A stretch of 64,000 bases of DNA from a virus (taxonomy: Duplodnaviria; Heunggongvirae; Uroviricota; Caudoviricetes), in IMG/VR virus record IMGVR_UViG_3300029880_000003, positions 66,978 through 130,977 of that record; one strand, 5' to 3'. Position 1 is the first letter of the stretch. Each line of letters starts with the position of its first letter. Below are positions 14,258 to 45,748 of the stretch, piece by piece. A program made the position numbers and the translations under genes. The notes under the pieces were generated by a model that was not told where the DNA came from, did not search any database, and saw only the letters and a list, made by a program, of their open reading frames with translations.

Positions 14258-15823
14258 TCAGTACATTGTAGGTCTATGGTTTAATTTGCTCATCTTGGCT
14301 GCGTAATCTTGGATATTGAACCCTACGTTAGCCTTGTGAAGCAGCTCTCGTTCAAGTTGGCACTGAACCCAATAGTTGTAAGCAAGAGAACTGTAACGGT
14401 CTTTTCTCATACCAGAACGCTCTTTAATCTTGATGTTAGTGCCTTTAACTTCGTATTCGAGCTTGATAAGCTCATTTACGAGCAATGTTGTTTGAATATA
14501 TGGCATCTTATATGGCAATTGCTCTTGCTCTGTCATTTTTGAAAACCCTGAGATTTTCTTCTTTAAGATATCTTCTGCATCGGGTTCTTCTGGAACTAGC
14601 AAATTTATTCTGCCAGTTTTAAATGCATTTCTCAAAAGAATACAGATCTCGTTGTTGAATGTTGCACTGCCCTTGATAGACCATATCTCTTTAGGAGCGC
14701 CATCAACTTTACACCGATCCGCCATAATATCATCGTTGCAGCACGAAAGAGCTGGATATAGTTCACCAGTTTCAGGATCTACGATATCTTGTACCAATTG
14801 ATCATAAACTCCGATACCAGCACCCAATGTATCAACAACCAAATCGGTACATTTATAAGTTTTATATAATCTGCGAATAATAAGGGCTAATTCATTAGTA
14901 TTCAACCCTTCGTGATTTTCCATATATACTATATTCGCAATATAGTTATTATCATTTGTAGGAATCGCACTATTAATAATGATAGAACTGGCATCGTTCT
15001 TATGTTTTTTAGAAGCCATAAGAGCAATGTCTACAGATAAAATCCTTCTTTCGTTCGGTACAAGATCTGGGATTTTATATGTTTTATTTTGTATCGAAGA
15101 TGGCGGATATATTGCAGTTTTAAGTTTTCTTCTGGTTGATATGTCGCTAAGCTTAAAGAACGAACCATCAGTATCTCCGTAGAATAGGCTACCCATCTCC
15201 ATAGACCATTTAACCTCGTCAAAGTCTTCTTCAGACATTTCATCTTGAACTGCCTCCTTTTGGAGAAGTCCTTCTTTAATAGATATCTGATATGGAAGAC
15301 TACAAATAAAATATTTCTTATCTGGGTCTAGCAAGTTCGCAGTATATGCTTTTGCTTTTTCATAAGCCCAGTGGTCTACGTACCACGCCGAACTCATGTA
15401 GATCTCTTTATTTCGCTCAAGCATATGAGCGTACTTCGGATTATTGAGATAACCTGGCGTTCTTGGTGCCGTCAAGAATTTCTTTAAAACAGTGTCGATT
15501 GTATCTTTGTCTACCATACGGAATTCATCACAAACAAGAACGTTAGCTCTACCACCGCGCCCTGTGTCTGAGGCAGTGACAACTTTTATGTAAGATCCAT
15601 TTTTAAAATTAATCACGGCATTGTTAATACCTACAGTGTGAAATGATATTTCGCGTTTTAAATTCTCCGAACCCCAGCCATGAAGTTTCATAAAGTCATC
15701 TTCAATTTTCAATAAAACTTCATTTGCCTGTGTTCTAGTAGAAGATGCCACGCATATCTTTGTTCCTGGGAACAATATGCATCGGCAAACGCAAAACAAA
15801 GCAGTCAAAAAAGTCTTACCTTG
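14258..15823 (-). CDS. terL: terminase large subunit, exon 2
   Basis: reading frame opens directly after in-frame TAA and begins Q-G-K-T-F-L-T-A-L (Walker A lysine) with no ATG or RBS; Walker B VLVCDEF; nuclease domain follows. Confidence 0.7.
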   Translation of the reverse strand, partial: QGKTFLTALFCVCRCILFPGTKICVASSTRTQANEVLLKIEDDFMKLHGWGSENLKREISFHTVGINNAVINFKNGSYIKVVTASDTGRGGRANVLVCDEFRMVDKDTIDTVLKKFLTAPRTPGYLNNPKYAHMLERNKEIYMSSAWYVDHWAYEKAKAYTANLLDPDKKYFICSLPYQISIKEGLLQKEAVQDEMSEEDFDEVKWSMEMGSLFYGDTDGSFFKLSDISTRRKLKTAIYPPSSIQNKTYKIPDLVPNERRILSVDIALMASKKHKNDASSIIINSAIPTNDNNYIANIVYMENHEGLNTNELALIIRRLYKTYKCTDLVVDTLGAGIGVYDQLVQDIVDPETGELYPALSCCNDDIMADRCKVDGAPKEIWSIKGSATFNNEICILLRNAFKTGRINLLVPEEPDAEDILKKKISGFSKMTEQEQLPYKMPYIQTTLLVNELIKLEYEVKGTNIKIKERSGMRKDRYSSLAYNYWVQCQLERELLHKANVGFNIQDYAAKMSKLNHRPTMY

Positions 15824-17136
15824 CGGTTGTTATTAACCATAGGCTTTTTATCCTATGCTCTGGAAGTTTCCTTCATTTTCATCGGCATGTCTTTTCATGC
15901 CCAGCCTAGCACATATTTTCACCTACGACTCTACGTTTAGGTGGAGAAGACTCGTGGAGATGTTATATTTATTCAATCTCTGTGCGTTACGGTGCAAATT
16001 AGCCTTACGCAATCTAATTTGTTACCTCGGTATTAGCATATAATGTTACCTACTTAGCCTTCACCGATTTTCCTCTCTTTAATTACCTGCTCATTTCTGA
16101 GCAGGAAGACCATTTTTATACAATAAGTATTTTTGATATTTTCTATCTAATTTTTGAACATTGACATCGTAATAAATTAAATCCAATAGCTTTTCTGCAT
16201 TTGTACCATATAAATTCAATCTGTATTTTCTATCGTTCTCTTTATATACATTTGATTTTATTGAATATTCGGACAATTTATTTTTGATATACACAAGAAC
16301 ATCATCAAATGAAGACGTTATGTGGACGTAGAGATGATTGTTATTGCCTATATAAATACAACCATCTCCATCGATGTAGCCCCTTAGAAAATCTAAGAAG
16401 TAATCATCTAGCTCTGGGAAAACTTTATGATTTGTTTTATCTGGCACAACTCCATGAGAAATCAAGTCGGAGACTATATCTTTTGAATACACTCTAATTA
16501 AGGCAGTATCACTAATTGATTTTTCTGGATAGCCACAGATATATTTTTCTCTATGTCTGAATTTTATATCATGTGCATTTCCGAGTTCGCTGTTGAAATC
16601 CTCTAACAGTTTAACATCGTTCTCCTGCAATTCAATTGCCAACTCATACGTTCTTCTATCTGTATTGCATTGAATACTGCCGTCAGCAAATATAAAACCA
16701 AGCCAATACGCTTTGTTATTGGTATCTATGAACTTGAAATATCTTTTATCAAAATTCCTTAACTTAGTGTCGCAGTTATTGTTTATCCAACCTCTAACTT
16801 GCCTCTCGGTAAAGCCAAGTTCTTTTGCAATATCAGAGTATTTCATACTCGTATAATTGTTGGACATGTATTCAATATCGCTCTTACTAAAAATAGACCG
16901 ATTTGATTTCTTGTATCCATTGTTGTTCAGCCAACCATTTATTTGTTGTGGCGTATACCCACCTAAGTTTTCTCCGATTTCTTTATATGTCATATGCTCA
17001 TAATTTGATAGTATGTAATTTATCTGTTCGTCATTAAATAATTTTCTCATATCAACCTCTTTCGCTAAGGAAAGAGGTGGACGGTGGCTATCCGCCAAAC
17101 CTCAATTAAATACGTTTACTTATCGTAATGCTTTCG
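15824..17136 (-). mobile_element. group I intron with LAGLIDADG homing endonuclease ORF, inserted in terL
   Basis: exon 1 ends in U (GGU), intron ends in G (…AACAACCG); splicing joins …YIAARG to QGKTFLTAL, giving AARGQGKT ([AG]x4GK[ST]); about 1313 nt, AT-rich, stem-rich flanks. Confidence 0.7.
16091..17050 (-). CDS. LAGLIDADG homing endonuclease (double-motif) with N-terminal tandem HTH-like repeats
   Basis: motifs YWLGFIFADGSI and LRGYIDGDGCI; own AGAGGT RBS before ATG at 17050; N-terminal repeats …NY..M.Y.EI…LG….Q(I/V).GW(L/I)NNN twice. Confidence 0.85.
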   Translation of the reverse strand: MRKLFNDEQINYILSNYEHMTYKEIGENLGGYTPQQINGWLNNNGYKKSNRSIFSKSDIEYMSNNYTSMKYSDIAKELGFTERQVRGWINNNCDTKLRNFDKRYFKFIDTNNKAYWLGFIFADGSIQCNTDRRTYELAIELQENDVKLLEDFNSELGNAHDIKFRHREKYICGYPEKSISDTALIRVYSKDIVSDLISHGVVPDKTNHKVFPELDDYFLDFLRGYIDGDGCIYIGNNNHLYVHITSSFDDVLVYIKNKLSEYSIKSNVYKENDRKYRLNLYGTNAEKLLDLIYYDVNVQKLDRKYQKYLLYKNGLPAQK

Positions 17137-17346
17137 ACCTCGTGCTGCAATATACATAAAATAATAATTATGCATCATTGCATACAATAATATTTTCTGA
17201 AACAGCTTTAATTTCACATTTAGGTAATCAGCTACAAATCTCTGAGGATTGCTTCGATAGAAAGCAGTCCATGCAGCAACACCATCCATAATCCTAGCCG
17301 ACTTCTCATTGGCTATCTCTTTTTCGGATTTCTTTCTCTTAGCCAT
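17137..17346 (-). CDS. terL: terminase large subunit, exon 1
   Basis: [10 protein letters not shown]…FQKILLYAM…YIAARG then intron read-through RKHYDK-stop; 1-nt overlap ATGA with terS. Confidence 0.65.
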
Positions 17347-18392
17347 TATGACTTCTCCTCTTCATCGGAGATGTCACTTCCGAAGAGGGCATCGAAGATA
17401 GCTTCGTTATCCTCTTCTTCGGCATACTCTGGCTTCTCAGCAGTATACTTAGCCATGAACCTATCATACAAATTAGACAGACCATTCTTAAGACCCATCA
17501 TCTTAGCAAGATGCCCTCTAAAGAATGTATCCAGATAAAGTCCGATCTTGTCAACATCAGCCAATTCAGGATCGCAATCTGGAATCGGTCTTGTATTTTC
17601 CCATTTGTCGATGAGAGTGCCAAGCGTCTGAGAATCAGACATTGCCTCACCAGAGTTTTGCTTTGGCTGCAACTTCGCAGAATCAAGAAGCTTCTGGAAC
17701 TGTATCGTCAAATCCTTCGTATCACCCTTGGCTCTGTTGGCTCTCTGCAACTCTAACTGGGTAAAGCAAATCTGCTTGAACAGCTCTTCTTGAGCCTTCG
17801 TATTGCACTCATGTCTGGCAGTCCAATCAGTGTATTGGCTATACAGATAAAGATAATCTTCTTTTTCAAAGCCTTCACCGAATATCTCTATTGCCTTGGC
17901 AATCTTATCGTTCGCCTTGATATCGCTCTCTGTAACCAGCATAGTAGGGGAGGAGTCTTTGCCACCCTCGACAATCTTCTCATTGATGGTACCATCATAA
18001 CCCTTTTCCCTGTTTTGACTTAGATTGATTCGTTTAACATACAAACCAACCAACGGGGTGTCGATATATCTCCCAGACTTCTGATCGTTGACTGCCGCAT
18101 CAAGCACTTTGTCGGCATAATACCAATCCATTAGCATACATATTCGTTCCATTGCTTTCCGCTCTGGATTTGTGTAACCTAGCGATTTATACTTCGTAGC
18201 ATAATCGTAGCAAAGCTTGTCTAAGCATTCTTTGCAAATCGGTACTTTGCCAACAGCTCCGAACGCCTTGCTTTTAGTAGCATAAAAATTTTTCTTAAAA
18301 TCAAGCTTCTCTCCACAGCAGAGACAAAACGTCTTTGTTGGCGGATTCTTAAGAAACTCCTTTTCCTTTGGCGGTCTGCCTCTGGTAGCCAT
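17346..18392 (-). CDS. terS: terminase small subunit (putative)
   Basis: directly upstream of terL; likely start ATG at 18392 after GAGGTG RBS ([12 protein letters not shown]…); acidic C-terminus. Confidence 0.45.
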
Positions 18393-18457
18393 AGGCATCA
18401 CCTCTATAATTTCTTCAAACAAAAACAGCCCTCAACATTGAGAGCTACAATAAATCA

Positions 18458-19992: not shown

Positions 19993-20331
19993 TTACTTAC
20001 AAGCATCTGATTTTGCTGTAAGCTTCTCACCGTATTTGCGAGTGACGTTTGCTTTTGGCTTGATTTTCTTCTTGGTCATAATTGTCTCGCCAGTGAGATT
20101 GTTGCGCTTTTCCTTCTCGTCAAGAAAAGTGCTGTCAATGGAAATACCCTCAAACAGTCTAATGGTTACGTCTTTATCAGCGTCAGCTGATGAAAGAAGT
20201 TCAACCATCTGTTCTTCAAGAGCGTCAAGAACCTTCCTGATAAAGCTGTAACGAATGAATTCTGTTCTAGCGATACGCTTCATAATGTCGGATCTTGTAT
20301 ATACAATCTTTTCCTTTTCATTGTTCTCCAT
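19993..20331 (-). CDS. HU/IHF family DNA-binding protein
   Basis: …KRNNLTGETIMTKKKIKPKANV… resembles HU beta-arm RNPxTGE. Confidence 0.6.
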   Translation of the reverse strand: MENNEKEKIVYTRSDIMKRIARTEFIRYSFIRKVLDALEEQMVELLSSADADKDVTIRLFEGISIDSTFLDEKEKRNNLTGETIMTKKKIKPKANVTRKYGEKLTAKSDACK

Positions 20332-20502: not shown

Positions 20503-21579
20503 TTATATAGTGGGGGTCTGTCCACGCAAGCGATTTCTGCGCTCTCTTTCCTTGATTCTCTTGTATTCTCGCCTATACTCATCGTGGCAACCTGGACATC
20601 TACAGGTCTTTGAGTCGTATATTCCTACCTCAAACCATAGTCCACAGTCAACACATTGAATATCTTTCGTTTGAGGTCTTAGATGGGATTCAAGGTTCTC
20701 AAGTATGATATCACCGTAACACAGCCACAGAGCCGTCTTGTTGTTGCTCTTCTTGATTCCGTATAGGAACTTTACCAATATATCGACAACATCATAGTTA
20801 TTGTAACCATAAAGAGAGAGGGCGTATCTTACGTCACTGAAAATCTTGCGATGCTTAGCCACTGTCCTAAGATAAGAATCAGAGCTGTTGTCCTTGTCTG
20901 AACACAACATGCTGTCAAGAGCAAGATAGTATTCCTTGTTAAACTCACAATACTTCACGATAACAGGATCGGTTTCCTCTTTGATGATTTTACCCTTGTC
21001 CGTAAAAGCAACATCGAACTCGATATCGGGATTCTTCATCATCAAGGTATAATCGATTTCATCAAGACCAAGCTTACGGCAGTTGATTCTTGGGTTTGGG
21101 ATGATTGCCTCAAGTTTATTTACGAAGCTTTCATTGGAGCCAAGCACCTGAGAATCCTTTTTGTCTTTTGCATACTTGAAAAAATGGGGGAGAGGGTCTT
21201 TTGTTAATTCATTGATTTTCTCGTCAATCTCATCTGGTCTTGTTGGCTTGTATAGAGTTTTCGCAAAATCTATAACGAAGTTGTTCTCCATACAAAGCAA
21301 TCTAATTACATCAATTGCATCACATTGCTCCTCGTGCGTTCCATCAACAAACACATCGCTGTTCCAAATCTTCGAAATGTTGTTGCTATAGATACCGATA
21401 TTCCCTCCAACAAACGCAGCATGAAGACCATCATAGATGGCGGCATTGTTGAGCGGACGCGGCTCAGCTTTCTTCATGTTGTAGTAGAGAGGGACGATAT
21501 CGAATTTCTCAAGATTTCTTTCTGCAACTTCAATAAGCGTCTTGTCTGCAACGACAAGCGACTTATCTCCATCAACCAA
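20503..21579 (-). CDS. hypothetical protein with C-terminal zinc ribbon and basic tail (possibly exon 2 of split gene)
   Basis: frame opens right after in-frame TAG (TAG CTA TAC AGG TTG…) with only TTG and no RBS; C-term CVDCGLWFEVGIYDSKTCRCPGCHDEY. Confidence 0.4.
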   Translation of the reverse strand: MVDGDKSLVVADKTLIEVAERNLEKFDIVPLYYNMKKAEPRPLNNAAIYDGLHAAFVGGNIGIYSNNISKIWNSDVFVDGTHEEQCDAIDVIRLLCMENNFVIDFAKTLYKPTRPDEIDEKINELTKDPLPHFFKYAKDKKDSQVLGSNESFVNKLEAIIPNPRINCRKLGLDEIDYTLMMKNPDIEFDVAFTDKGKIIKEETDPVIVKYCEFNKEYYLALDSMLCSDKDNSSDSYLRTVAKHRKIFSDVRYALSLYGYNNYDVVDILVKFLYGIKKSNNKTALWLCYGDIILENLESHLRPQTKDIQCVDCGLWFEVGIYDSKTCRCPGCHDEYRREYKRIKERERRNRLRGQTPTI

Positions 21580-21761
21580 CCTGTATAGCTACAGGTCAGA
21601 CTATATCATAACCATATCATTTCTGACTTAGGTTCTCGGCACTTCCAAATGAGGTGTCTCACCTCAAATGTACTCTACTCGGTTATTTATGTTTAACCAT
21701 ATCATTTTGACTTAGGTTAAACATTATCCTTTCGATAGTCGTTTGACATTTGTAAATTGAA

Positions 21762-22379
21762 TCATTCTTTTTCAAAACTCAAGCCCTTATATGTTTTATT
21801 GTTTCTGATGGATTTATCTATCTGACTACGTATTCCTTCCAACGAACAATTTTGCGCATAATGTTTCTGTATATATTCGCAACATTTTACAATATAGTCA
21901 AATTCTTTTATAAACTCGCCATCTAAAAACATTTTTATTTTTCTGCATCTACCATTTCTCAAGCCTTTACGCCCTTGTTTTTCTTTTGCGTATTCCTTGT
22001 TATTCGAGTATATCTCATGCAGCTTTCTATTCCCGTAATTTGGATTATTGCTTCCATGATAATCTGGCATGTTACATTTGCTATACCTTACATTATCAAT
22101 TCTTGATATCCATTCTAAATTATCAACATTTGAATTAGATCTATCGTAATCCTTATGATTCACCTCTGGTAAATTATCTGGGTTCGGTATATAAGCAAGT
22201 GCCACTAGTCTAGCAATTCTAACTGATCGCCATCCTTTATTCGGCACCTTTATAGAGCATATCGAATAACCATCTTTATTATATCTGGTATTCCTTAACT
22301 CACCATTCCAAATAACTTTCCCATCCCTGCTAACCTTTACGGGTGTTCCAAAATAATCTATTTCTTTGTATTCGTCCAT
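21762..22379 (-). CDS. HNH homing endonuclease (HNH_3 / AP2-type)
   Basis: VNHKDYDRSNSNVDNLEW motif; strong GAGGAGG RBS; AT-rich; flanked by about 180 and 160 nt of non-coding DNA. Confidence 0.75.
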   Translation of the reverse strand: MDEYKEIDYFGTPVKVSRDGKVIWNGELRNTRYNKDGYSICSIKVPNKGWRSVRIARLVALAYIPNPDNLPEVNHKDYDRSNSNVDNLEWISRIDNVRYSKCNMPDYHGSNNPNYGNRKLHEIYSNNKEYAKEKQGRKGLRNGRCRKIKMFLDGEFIKEFDYIVKCCEYIQKHYAQNCSLEGIRSQIDKSIRNNKTYKGLSFEKE

Positions 22380-22536
22380 TCTGCCTCCTCAGCAGAATGA
22401 TTCAATTTACACTTTGCACAGGATTCCAAAATGGTTCCCTGTTAGCATGGCTCCTAGCTGTCATTTCCTACAGCTCCTATATGTAAGCCATACACCCCAG
22501 ATGTCTGGGTTCACCGAGTTTTATATCCCTGTATTT

Positions 22537-24387
22537 CTACAGGGTTCGACATTTATGGTCATCGAATTGAAGAATCTTGCTTATCAAATCCTTACAGCTT
22601 GTATAAACCGCATCGGTAACGAACCATTCCCGAAGTTTCTTCTGTCGTTCCTTATACTCTCTGCAAGCGATATTCTTTCTGATTGCATGTTCCATGAAGA
22701 GGTGCGGCGATCTCAGGCAATCAAGCTTGTCATCCTTCCTGAACAACCAACAGAAGACCTCTCCATCGTCAAGCAACCCATTTGGATTCTCCTCTCCTAG
22801 AAACCAATGCTCGCACGCAGCATAGAAATCTGGGAGCAGGAAAGTGTATTTACCTCGCACATTCAGCTTGCCAGACTTGCATTTCTTGATGATGCTGTCC
22901 TTGATGCTTCTCAAATGAGATTTCGCATACTCGTCATTCAGCAAATCTGGATACAAATCGATTGATTCTTGAAAAGCAGTCTTGTTCGTGTTATACGGTG
23001 TTACACCAAACGCATCCTTGATATTCTTGACAGAAGAGCAGAGGTTCTTAAGCTTGCCAACGGACTGTCCAGATATCTCAGCAATCTCATCGTCTGTGAT
23101 ATCAGTCAAACTCTGCAACATCTGATAGTTGATTGTCGCGTCCTTTATCCTGTCTTCCTCAAGGTTCGTGTACCCAGCAGAGCAATTGTACTTCTTGTAG
23201 TTCTCCTTGTACTCATCCCATGAGTCATAGTATTTGTACATCTTGAACTGACTTTTGCAGAAGACAACCTGTATATCCTCTGCGATGATATCATGCTCTT
23301 TGCCGTAGATATCCTTCAGAACAGGAGAGCATCCGTGTTCCTCTATGAACTTGACGAAATCGAACACACCGAGCAATCCCTTCACCCAGGGGAGCCGAAC
23401 CATCCTGTTCTTACCCATGCATGGAAGCATCATACCAGCACCATCTGTGTGGGTAATCGGCACATGCTTGTTTTGACGCTTGATGGAGTAGTCTGTCTCA
23501 TCAACCAAATCGTATGTACCTAAAACATCAGTCTCGAAATCGTCAACCACAATCGTCTTGTCGATATCGAACTCTTCCCAAACATCTGTTGCGGAGTTAG
23601 CCAAAGCCATGTAAGCCAGATGCTTGTTCGGGTTGTTGCCGCCCTTTGCGTTGATCTTGTCGATTGTCAATCCGCACATCAACGACCTCTCGTACTTCTT
23701 CCACACGGACTCTCTCACGAACACGCACTTCTTTGTTCTGATCTGTCCAGCAGAAGAGGTGAAGTACACGTACTTCTCTCCCTCGAACATGAACCCATGG
23801 TAAATCAAGTCCTTGATGACATCGAAGTAGTATACCTGAATAACCATGAAGTCCTTGCAAAGCTCATCTTGCTCGGCTCCGATTGTCCTTGTGAAGTAGG
23901 AGTCAAAAACAGAGATGATGTTCTTATCGGCGATAGCCTCATCACGCAGCTCTCTGATATGATGTGTACCATTTGACCTTATGTTAGCCTCAACCTTGTT
24001 AGCCAAGAGAAGAAGAAGGTTGTCTTTTGCTTCCTTTGCCTTTTTGTTCTTCATGCGAACAATGTCCTTCTGCTTGGAGTACCTATGCCCAAGCTCGGTC
24101 ATCATCTCTGCATCCTCGCCGTATCCAGAGAAGTCGAACTCGTTCTTCGCGACAGACTTCAAATCATCGTCTGAGACACCGTATTCGCGCAGCTTCTTCT
24201 TGATATCCCCAAGCCCCATGACGGTTCGCTTGACTCTGCCGTTCGACCCCTTGAAGGTGTAGCCGTTAACAAGCTGGTTTCTCTCGGATCTCAACCTATG
24301 GTTCTGCATGTGCAGGTTCTTTTCCTCGTTGCTGTAGAAATCAGCAGTGTCAAAGCAATAAATCTGAATTTGCTTGTCTAATGCCAT
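22537..24387 (-). CDS. large hypothetical protein (possible nucleic-acid enzyme/replication; function unknown)
   Basis: 616-aa ORF; possible AEP-like DxD (IVVDDFETD) but no confident family assignment. Confidence 0.45.
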   Translation of the reverse strand: MALDKQIQIYCFDTADFYSNEEKNLHMQNHRLRSERNQLVNGYTFKGSNGRVKRTVMGLGDIKKKLREYGVSDDDLKSVAKNEFDFSGYGEDAEMMTELGHRYSKQKDIVRMKNKKAKEAKDNLLLLLANKVEANIRSNGTHHIRELRDEAIADKNIISVFDSYFTRTIGAEQDELCKDFMVIQVYYFDVIKDLIYHGFMFEGEKYVYFTSSAGQIRTKKCVFVRESVWKKYERSLMCGLTIDKINAKGGNNPNKHLAYMALANSATDVWEEFDIDKTIVVDDFETDVLGTYDLVDETDYSIKRQNKHVPITHTDGAGMMLPCMGKNRMVRLPWVKGLLGVFDFVKFIEEHGCSPVLKDIYGKEHDIIAEDIQVVFCKSQFKMYKYYDSWDEYKENYKKYNCSAGYTNLEEDRIKDATINYQMLQSLTDITDDEIAEISGQSVGKLKNLCSSVKNIKDAFGVTPYNTNKTAFQESIDLYPDLLNDEYAKSHLRSIKDSIIKKCKSGKLNVRGKYTFLLPDFYAACEHWFLGEENPNGLLDDGEVFCWLFRKDDKLDCLRSPHLFMEHAIRKNIACREYKERQKKLREWFVTDAVYTSCKDLISKILQFDDHKCRTL

Positions 24388-45596: not shown

Positions 45597-45672
45597 GCGC
45601 CAGTAACTCAGGGGACAGAGTTCCGATCTTCTAAATCGGGGGTCGAGTGTTCAAATCACTCCTGGCGCTCCA
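45597..45672 (+). tRNA. tRNA-Arg (anticodon UCU)
   Basis: hand-folded cloverleaf: acceptor GCGCCAG/CTGGCGC, D-stem ACTC/GAGT, anticodon stem CCGAT/ATCGG loop CTTCTAA, T-arm GAGTG-TTCAAAT-CACTC, encoded CCA. Confidence 0.8.
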
Positions 45673-45674
45673 AT

Positions 45675-45748
45675 GCCTGATTAGTTTAATGGTAAAACAA
45701 ATCACTTGTAATGGTTAGTCGAGCGTCCGATTCGTTCATCAGGCACCA
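45675..45748 (+). tRNA. tRNA-Thr (anticodon UGU), T-loop slightly non-canonical
   Basis: acceptor GCCTGAT/ATCAGGC, D-stem GTTT/AAAC, anticodon stem AATCA/TGGTT loop CTTGTAA, encoded CCA. Confidence 0.55.

Follow-up and report, generated by a model that had tools for sequence, protein, structure and literature searches.

A probable mobile group I intron with an HNH endonuclease gene interrupts a YonO-like RNA polymerase gene of a Caudoviricetes virus within its catalytic aspartate motif

Three consecutive open reading frames (ORFs) on the minus strand of a 64,000-nucleotide (nt) stretch of a Caudoviricetes virus (IMG/VR record IMGVR_UViG_3300029880_000003, positions 66,978 to 130,977; the whole of this stretch is the window, and all coordinates are given in its numbering) are best read as one interrupted gene. 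The upstream ORF (24387..22537, 616 amino acids (aa), ATG start) and the downstream ORF (21579..20503, 358 aa, listed from a TTG and with its first methionine at codon 35) are, judging from sequence comparison, the two exons of a single gene for a 966-aa YonO-like single-subunit DNA-dependent RNA polymerase. Between the exons lies an intervening sequence of 984 nt with a middle ORF of its own (22379..21762, 205 aa), and we consider it very probable that this is a mobile phage group I intron of the IA type, competent for splicing and carrying an HNH homing endonuclease, seated in the catalytic motif of the polymerase. An earlier note on the window had proposed an intron with an HNH endonuclease that divides one gene of about 970 aa, a proposal supported by the joined frame of 966 aa. 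The YonO protein of Bacillus phage SPbeta is a single-chain DNA-dependent RNA polymerase that transcribes late genes, and its aspartate triad is essential for catalysis (PMC5467207, Forrest et al. 2017).

The 616-aa ORF matched the Pfam family RdRP (PF05183) with an E-value of 1.8e-7 and 30.7 bits (cut-off 23.8), and at the nucleotide level both outer ORFs matched yonO of SPbeta and of related phages. Exon 1 (22561..24387, minus strand) comprises 609 codons ending in ..ILQFD, with a last base U at 22561, while exon 2 (20503..21576, minus strand) comprises 357 codons plus the stop and begins GUU GAU GGA GAU, read as VDGD. Joining 24387..22561 to 21576..20503, with the exons meeting as ..CAAUUCGAU to GUUGAUGGAGAU, gave an open frame of 966 aa, and the spliced product shared 45% identity with SPbeta YonO (840 aa) over ~800 aa by tblastn. 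SPbeta YonO is unbroken across the junction and reads LLQFDNDGDKALII there, within ..SKLLQFDNDGDKALII.., while in the window ..SKILQFD closes the body of the upstream ORF and VDGDKSLVV.. opens the downstream one. The insertion falls inside the catalytic aspartate motif D-x-D-G-D (..LQFD / VDGD), and the spliced product restores DVDGD.

More than 3,500 homologues of the 966-aa product were found in a database search, and the best 120 are single proteins of ~905–979 aa. The best match (P0001) is likewise 966 aa long, 98% identical without gaps, and reads QFDVDGDK across the predicted junction. Its gene, located on a 55.6-kilobase assembled contig from a public assembly (L004), aligned gaplessly with the joined exons at 96.1% nucleotide identity, and it is this alignment that sets the intervening sequence at 22560..21577. 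The insertion proposed in the earlier note is real, but its limits, drawn there at 21580–22536, were slightly too narrow: the 616-aa ORF runs into the intron with its stop and the seven sense codons before it, and the TTG of the 358-aa ORF is likewise intronic. Whether homologues occur fused, a check suggested at the same time, can be answered in the affirmative, given the continuous SPbeta YonO, the uninterrupted 966-aa allele, and the top 120 single-protein homologues. Compared with the intron-less allele, the ratio of nonsynonymous to synonymous substitution rates (dN/dS) was 0.049 in exon 1 and 0.030 in exon 2, the latter value indicating that selection still acts at the protein level on the part 3′ of the intron.

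The ORFs, non-coding flanks, hairpins, in-frame UAG, and direct repeat previously described were all present where they had been placed. The HNH ORF is flanked by 157 nt (22536..22380) and 182 nt (21761..21580) of non-coding sequence. The UAG stop of the upstream ORF (22539..22537) lies inside the hairpin CCCUGUA-GAAA-UACAGGG (22544..22527), a second hairpin (GAGGUG-AGA-CACCUC) occurs at 21670..21646, and the UACAGG hairpins at 22543..22528 and 21595..21580 are 88% alike. The direct repeat (21634..21610 and 21718..21695) matches at 24 of 25 nt with one indel. To these we add an 18-nt perfect inverted repeat, absent from the earlier note, in which 22411..22394 pairs with 21768..21751 and which exactly flanks the HNH ORF.

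The same layout could be taken as a polymerase that is truly split, with two separately translated polypeptides that assemble, a free-standing HNH gene between their genes, and no splicing. Multi-subunit phage RNA polymerases are often divided among several genes (PMC2919709), free-standing HNH genes are common in phages, and the Rfam match of the intervening sequence never reaches threshold. We nevertheless hold a split polymerase to be very improbable. The downstream part has neither an ATG nor a ribosome-binding site (RBS), an in-frame UAG lies four codons 5′ of its TTG, and this TTG is formed by the final 3 nt of the intron, so the 358-aa ORF has no start codon of its own and is, as had been suspected, very probably not an independent gene. 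Moreover, excising exactly 984 nt recovers the frame and the DVDGD of the uninterrupted allele, a split at this point would leave one catalytic aspartate, the first, on a different polypeptide from the remaining two, and the flanks form a covariation-supported group I core that obeys the U and G boundary rules.

The group I intron so delimited (21577..22560, minus strand) starts GACCAUAAAU.. and ends ..CAGGUUG, with its terminal G at 21577. Its elements follow the order P1, P2, P3, two hairpins, P4/P5, P6/P6a, P7, P7.1, P7.2, the P3 3′ strand, P8, J8/7 with the P7 3′ strand, P9, and G; the core helices P3–P8 are arranged canonically, P3 and P7 forming a pseudoknot. In P1 (22545..22566), the exon sequence UUCGAU (22566..22561) pairs with the internal guide GUCGAA (22550..22545), such that the final base of exon 1 is a U held in a U.G wobble at the splice site, as is the rule for group I introns. 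The rule of a terminal G likewise holds, and the position of this G is fixed by the intron-less allele. P2 is the hairpin CCCUGUA-GAAA-UACAGGG (22527..22544), which holds the UAG and a GAAA loop (22537..22534) and in which six of the seven pairs are compensatory. The 5′ strand of P3 (CUCGGUG, 22512..22518) pairs with the 3′ strand GUGCCGAG (21642..21635), the two covarying through four pair types (CG, GC, AU, and UA at column 60/336 of the alignment described below). The partner of the P3 5′ strand in the single-sequence minimum free energy fold, the invariant ACCGAG at 21683..21678, was rejected, as it displayed no covariation in relatives.

Two further covariation-supported hairpins lie between P3 and P4, namely CCCAGA/UCUGGG (22509..22496) and GUAUGGCUU/GGAGCCAUGC with an inner AGCUGU/ACAGCU (22493..22445). 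The consensus helix P4 (ACAGGG/UCCUGU) and a short P5 (CCA/UGG) occupy 22418..22442, and the sequence CAGGGAAC..AAUCCUG presumably resembles P4/P5 of the group IA introns of phages. The inverted repeat constitutes P6a, an 18-bp helix whose 625-nt loop contains the HNH gene (12 of the 13 consensus pairs of P6 and P6a are compensatory); the 5′ strands of P6 (GCA) and P6a (UGUAAAUUGAAUCAUUCU) are found at 22394..22417, and their 3′ strands (UGU for P6) at 21746..21768, where P6a overlaps the HNH stop codon. The 5′ strand of P7 (GACUAU, 21735..21740), within the conserved AACGACUAUCGAAAGG, pairs with AUAGUC (21604..21599). P7.1 (21724..21689) and P7.2 (21670..21646) then fill 21646..21724, followed by the P3 3′ strand and by P8 (21610..21634), a hairpin of the form AACC-UAAG-UCA-GAAA-UGA-UAU-GGUU. 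The segment 21577..21609, to which Rfam RF00028 aligns, comprises J8/7 and the P7 3′ strand (AUGAUAUAGUC), P9 (CCUGUA-GCUA-UACAGG, 21595..21580), and the terminal UUG. The stem CCUGUA/UACAGG shared by P2 and P9 was set aside as incidental, as it occurs in this copy only and is not kept in relatives.

The two copies of the direct repeat correspond to P8 (21634..21610) and the tip of P7.1 (21718..21695), and hence to a duplicated hairpin. Both carry CCUAAG..UAUGG, which we take to be the canonical 11-nt receptor for GAAA tetraloops, and GAAA loops occur in P2 and P8. Docking of the GAAA in the loop of P2 (L2) into the P8 receptor is predicted and likely. The receptor hairpin is doubled in the same way (P8 and P7.1 tip) in two related introns (L033 and L110) and not in two others (L124 and L084).

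Subgroup IA is marked by P7.1 and P7.2, two helices located between P7 and the 3′ strand of P3, and the window intron has both. The two hairpins between P3 and P4 do not agree with this subgroup; because of them, an assignment to IA2, though considered, was not made, nor was one to IA1 or IA3.

Support for the fold comes from an alignment of 12 introns (A3, 430 columns), in which the P6a loops were trimmed at fixed offsets from conserved anchors and not by pairing. From these, RNAalifold predicted P1, P2, P3, the two hairpins, P4, P6, P6a, P7.1, P7.2, and P8, with compensatory changes at 66 of 87 pairs. A local hairpin in the RNAalifold output (UAUC-GAAAG-GAUA), which is invariant and competes with P7, was replaced by P7, with covariation informing on neither. 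With P7 included as a pseudoknot, 95.3% of cells formed standard pairs, compared to 36–40% when partners were slid by 1–3 columns; changes on both sides were seen at 68 of 89 pairs, and none of 500 shuffles reached any of five measures. The window copy forms all 89 consensus pairs, and with its ORF trimmed the RNA folds with a z-score of −7.7. In relatives, the guide changes together with the exon (UUUGAU/GUCAAA, UACAGU/GCUGUA, and UUCGGU/GCCGAA). The U at the exon end and the G at the intron end are shared by the window intron and all 11 of its relatives in YonO-type genes.

In a second alternative, the element is a group I intron by descent that has lost its splicing or splices poorly, leaving the polymerase a pseudogene in this virus. 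Introns with homing endonucleases do decay, and the HNH ORF of one relative (L124) is frameshifted. Against this, nothing has been lost from the 89 consensus pairs, the U.G pair of P1, the G at the intron end, or the conserved sequences of P7 and J8/7, both exons are open, and the dN/dS of 0.03–0.05 includes exon 2, which would go untranslated if unspliced. The polymerase may, in addition, serve late transcription, by analogy with SPbeta YonO (PMC5467207). We therefore regard loss of splicing as very unlikely, and a splicing-competent intron as the better account.

Homology to known introns was found by BLAST, with both non-coding flanks homologous to unannotated DNA of Staphylococcus, Enterococcus, Bacillus, and Clostridium phages. 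The match in the Staphylococcus phage vB_SsapH-Golestan101-M lies between two exons of DNA polymerase I, beside a homing-endonuclease gene, and mean column identity to this intervening sequence was 76% in the 5′ core and 75% in the 3′ core. Interruptions of polA in Silviavirus phages have been described as group I introns (PMC7497331). The Twort-like polA introns of Staphylococcus phages (Golestan101-M; Remus/Romulus) belong to the same ribozyme family and are the closest ribozyme relatives of the window intron, sharing the helix order, including the two P3–P4 hairpins, the sequences AACGACUAUCGAAAGG, UAACCRAGUAGAGUA, and GAUAUAGUCU, and the placement of an endonuclease gene in the P6 loop. 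The Golestan intron differs in its host gene (polA), its lack of P2, its ORF, annotated as a helix-turn-helix (HTH) homing endonuclease, and its phage lineage.

Viral contigs contain the conserved 16-mer AACGACUAUCGAAAGG (also given as AACGACTATCGAAAGG) in at least 120 stretches (L005–L124), and at 113 of 127 occurrences of the 16-mer in the fetched loci a GAUAUAGUC-like motif (also GATATAGTC) followed 78–272 nt downstream. On this sequence evidence, the 16-mer is the mark of a very large phage intron family. In the window itself, a motif search found CGACUAUCGAAAGG in this copy only, and a second exact GATATAGTCT at 16480..16471, inside an ORF for a LAGLIDADG protein.

Several observations weigh against a splicing-competent group IA intron with these boundaries. 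The comparison of DNA alone would permit the junction to slide by 1 nt; the junction given here was chosen because of the U/G boundary rule and P1. P7 (GACUAU/AUAGUC) is invariant in all 12 introns, such that conservation is its only support and covariation is silent, and P10 is weak, with five of six pairs and an A.G mismatch as judged by eye. The two P3–P4 hairpins are foreign to the textbook group I scheme. Finally, RF00028 gave 22.1 bits (gathering score 50) at E = 0.005 and over the 3′ part only, and Rfam searches of two ORF-less relatives (L102 and L112) gave no match at E ≤ 0.01. At the gathering threshold, Rfam returned two tRNAs only from the whole window. We conclude that Rfam is unusable for classifying this intron family, and a survey has described phage ‘IA2’ introns as heterogeneous and their Rfam coverage as poor (PMC11878797). 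The search for a group I core that the earlier note had recommended gave a sub-threshold match to Rfam, and such a core is supported by the Staphylococcus phage homology of both halves and by the full, covariation-supported fold.

The middle ORF (21762..22379, minus strand) encodes, as judged from its sequence, an I-HmuI-like HNH homing endonuclease, its activity being predicted. It was described in the earlier note as AT-rich and preceded by a strong RBS, and both descriptions hold: GAGGAGG (22390..22384) stands 4 nt before the ATG, and the G+C content of the ORF is 0.31–0.32, compared to 0.40–0.47 in the flanking ORFs. The protein matched Pfam HNH_3 with E = 4.7e-5 and 23.4 bits, just below the cut-off of 24.8, and matched PHROG 59 and 959 with E-values of about 4e-21. 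Residues 1–98 aligned with I-HmuI (PDB 1U3E; E = 3.4e-4), HNH motif included, and this motif is intact (EVNHKDYDRSNSNVDNLEWISRIDNV). Its nearest relatives in cultured phages share ~30–35% identity over most of the length.

A third reading, that the element is an intein removed by protein splicing or else a group II intron, has negligible probability and is already contradicted by the sequence. Both kinds are known in phage genes, and inteins have been mentioned for the DNA polymerase of Staphylococcus phages (PMC7497331). An intein is ruled out by the stop codons that close the frame on both sides and by the HNH ORF having its own start and RBS. Neither a reverse-transcriptase/maturase ORF nor an Rfam group II match was found, and the RNA bears the hallmarks of group I.

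With a group I intron, expression of the gene would proceed as follows. The precursor mRNA would fold into the ribozyme, and a guanosine would attack after U 22561, which the guide GUCGAA keeps in its wobble pair in P1. The 3′-OH thereby released on exon 1 would then attack after the terminal G at 21577, joining the exons, and the ligated mRNA would carry one 966-aa frame with D-V-D-G-D intact. Because the UAG inside P2 ends translation, unspliced RNA would yield the 616-aa product only, without two of the three catalytic aspartates. The HNH enzyme, in turn, would nick or cut intron-less alleles near the site, and repair would copy the intron in. The candidate target in the intron-less contig is ..ATTTTACAGTTTGAT|GTTGATGGAGATAAG.. 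(L004), and the site reads ..AAGATTTTACAGTTTGATGTTGATGGAGATAAGTCG.. in that contig compared to ..AAGATTCTTCAATTCGATGTTGATGG.. in the spliced exons of the window.

The insertion site appears to have been used more than once. In at least 13 other viral contigs, YonO-like genes are interrupted at residues 607–610. Seven distinct introns (L084, L124, L116, L102, L067, L112, and L026) lie exactly at the site of the window intron, and three closely related ones (L033 with L019, L110, and L030) lie 5 nt upstream, after ..UUACAGU and with the guide GCUGUA. Their contents vary: HNH homologues with 43–63% identity to the window protein are found in the introns of L030, L084, L116, and L026, a frameshifted HNH ORF in L124, a GIY-YIG-like ORF (judged by eye) in L067, and an unrelated ORF in L110, while the introns of L102 (356 nt), L112 (348 nt), and L033 have no ORF. 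The HNH protein most similar to that of the window (63% identity) is the one in L030, at the upstream site. Of 65 homologous loci in species-representative genomes, 62 run through the site without a break and one has an interruption at it; these loci derive mostly from gut assemblies of Lachnospiraceae and other Clostridia. This patchy distribution is the pattern expected of a homing element, and endonuclease-driven homing would account for the sporadic occurrence of the intron.

A second intervening sequence, of ~370–1180 nt, is present at residues 712/713 (the conserved CMENNF.IDFAKT region) in L033, L084, L110, L019, L030, and L112; the window gene has no intervening sequence at 712/713.

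The exon sequence next to the insertion also differs between the window and the intron-less allele in a distinct manner. Exon 1 displays four synonymous differences at positions −12, −10, −7, and −4 (22562–22573; CTTCAATTCGAT compared to TTACAGTTTGAT), and the first 166 nt of exon 2 display none, against a divergence of ~4% over the rest of the gene. The cluster could reflect a co-conversion tract, or it could consist of target-site changes that confer resistance to the endonuclease.

The closest functional parallel is provided by the Pseudomonas phage PhiPA3, where an I-HmuI-like HNH enzyme (gp210) is encoded in an intron bordering the conserved aspartates in the gene for a virion RNA polymerase β′-like subunit, nicks the intron-less gene of PhiKZ, and gives a competitive advantage (PMC11620839, Birkholz et al. 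2024). Common to PhiPA3 and the window are the I-HmuI-like HNH enzyme and an insertion beside the aspartates of a two-barrel RNA polymerase. The hosts differ, PhiPA3 being a nucleus-forming jumbo phage with a multi-subunit polymerase and the window gene encoding a single-subunit, YonO-type enzyme. The competitive role demonstrated in PhiPA3 is conjecture for the window intron. Seated in the catalytic triad of a polymerase that, by analogy with SPbeta, would drive late transcription, the intron and its endonuclease might be more than a passenger. They might serve as a weapon against intron-less relatives infecting the same cell, whose polymerase gene would be nicked as that of PhiKZ is by gp210, and they might also make late expression dependent on splicing. 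The two sites 5 nt apart, the turnover of endonucleases, and the four clustered synonymous changes would fit an ongoing contest over this one motif, yet we regard such a role as doubtful.

Other comparisons place the element among classical phage introns. The enzyme I-HmuI of the SPO1 DNA-polymerase intron (1U3E) is an HNH nicking enzyme likewise encoded inside a phage group I intron, although its similarity to the window protein is low and its C-terminal DNA-binding part is unmatched. The td intron of phage T4 (group IA2) is alike by description, with an endonuclease ORF looped from P6, with P7.1 and P7.2, and with an enzyme gene that is interrupted where it is conserved; its endonuclease is the GIY-YIG enzyme I-TevI, and it is not known to have P3–P4 hairpins. 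SPbeta yonO encodes the same D-x-D-G-D triad and has the same neighborhood (HU-like and YonJ/YonG-like genes), but it is uninterrupted, encodes 840 rather than 966 aa, and belongs to a Bacillus phage, the relatives of the window gene being mostly in gut Clostridia assemblies. A literature search for introns in yonO-type genes, confined to open-access papers and weak as evidence, found no earlier report. The element is of a classical kind, and the host gene appears to be new for such an intron.

The surroundings of the polymerase gene resemble those of yonO in SPbeta. A gene for an HU-like DNA-binding protein (19993–20331, minus strand) lies directly downstream, the downstream ORFs in the intron-less contig L004 hit Pfam YonJ_N and YonG, and the order reproduces yonO-yonN-yonJ-yonG of SPbeta. 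A megablast search of the 20 kilobases beside the gene against cultured phages gave no match at high identity, and the source appears, on sequence grounds, to be a phage without a close sequenced relative; it is a phage or prophage, and most of its relatives occur in assemblies of gut Clostridia and Lachnospiraceae.

Elsewhere in the window, the LAGLIDADG ORF (17098..16091, minus strand) matched Pfam LAGLIDADG_3 (1.1e-12) and LAGLIDADG_1 (1.6e-6), with N-terminal HTH matches, and is flanked by an ORF at 18422..17346 and a 516-aa ORF (15808..14258, minus strand) that opens with TTG. The region 14258–18422 is probably what the earlier note had called a terL intron. It gave no Rfam match at E ≤ 1 and does not contain the family motif CGACUATCGAAAGG; if it holds an intron, this would therefore be of a different type. 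Two adjacent tRNA genes (45597–45745, plus strand) scored 61 and 58.6 bits.

For annotation, the finding would turn two ‘hypothetical’ ORFs and an HNH gene into one gene for a 966-aa RNA polymerase and a mobile intron, an arrangement that gene callers and Rfam both miss. The intron family to which it belongs has two P3–P4 hairpins that the curated Rfam model does not capture, and the 12-intron alignment, together with the paired motifs AACGACUAUCGAAAGG and GAUAUAGUC, may help to improve the detection of introns in viral metagenomes. The YonO lineage appears to have been hit repeatedly, at two sites 5 nt apart and at a further site at residues 712/713, and by elements with several types of endonuclease. 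Homing introns would accordingly target the catalytic aspartate motif both in multi-subunit polymerases, as in PhiPA3, and in the very distant single-subunit polymerases of the YonO type.

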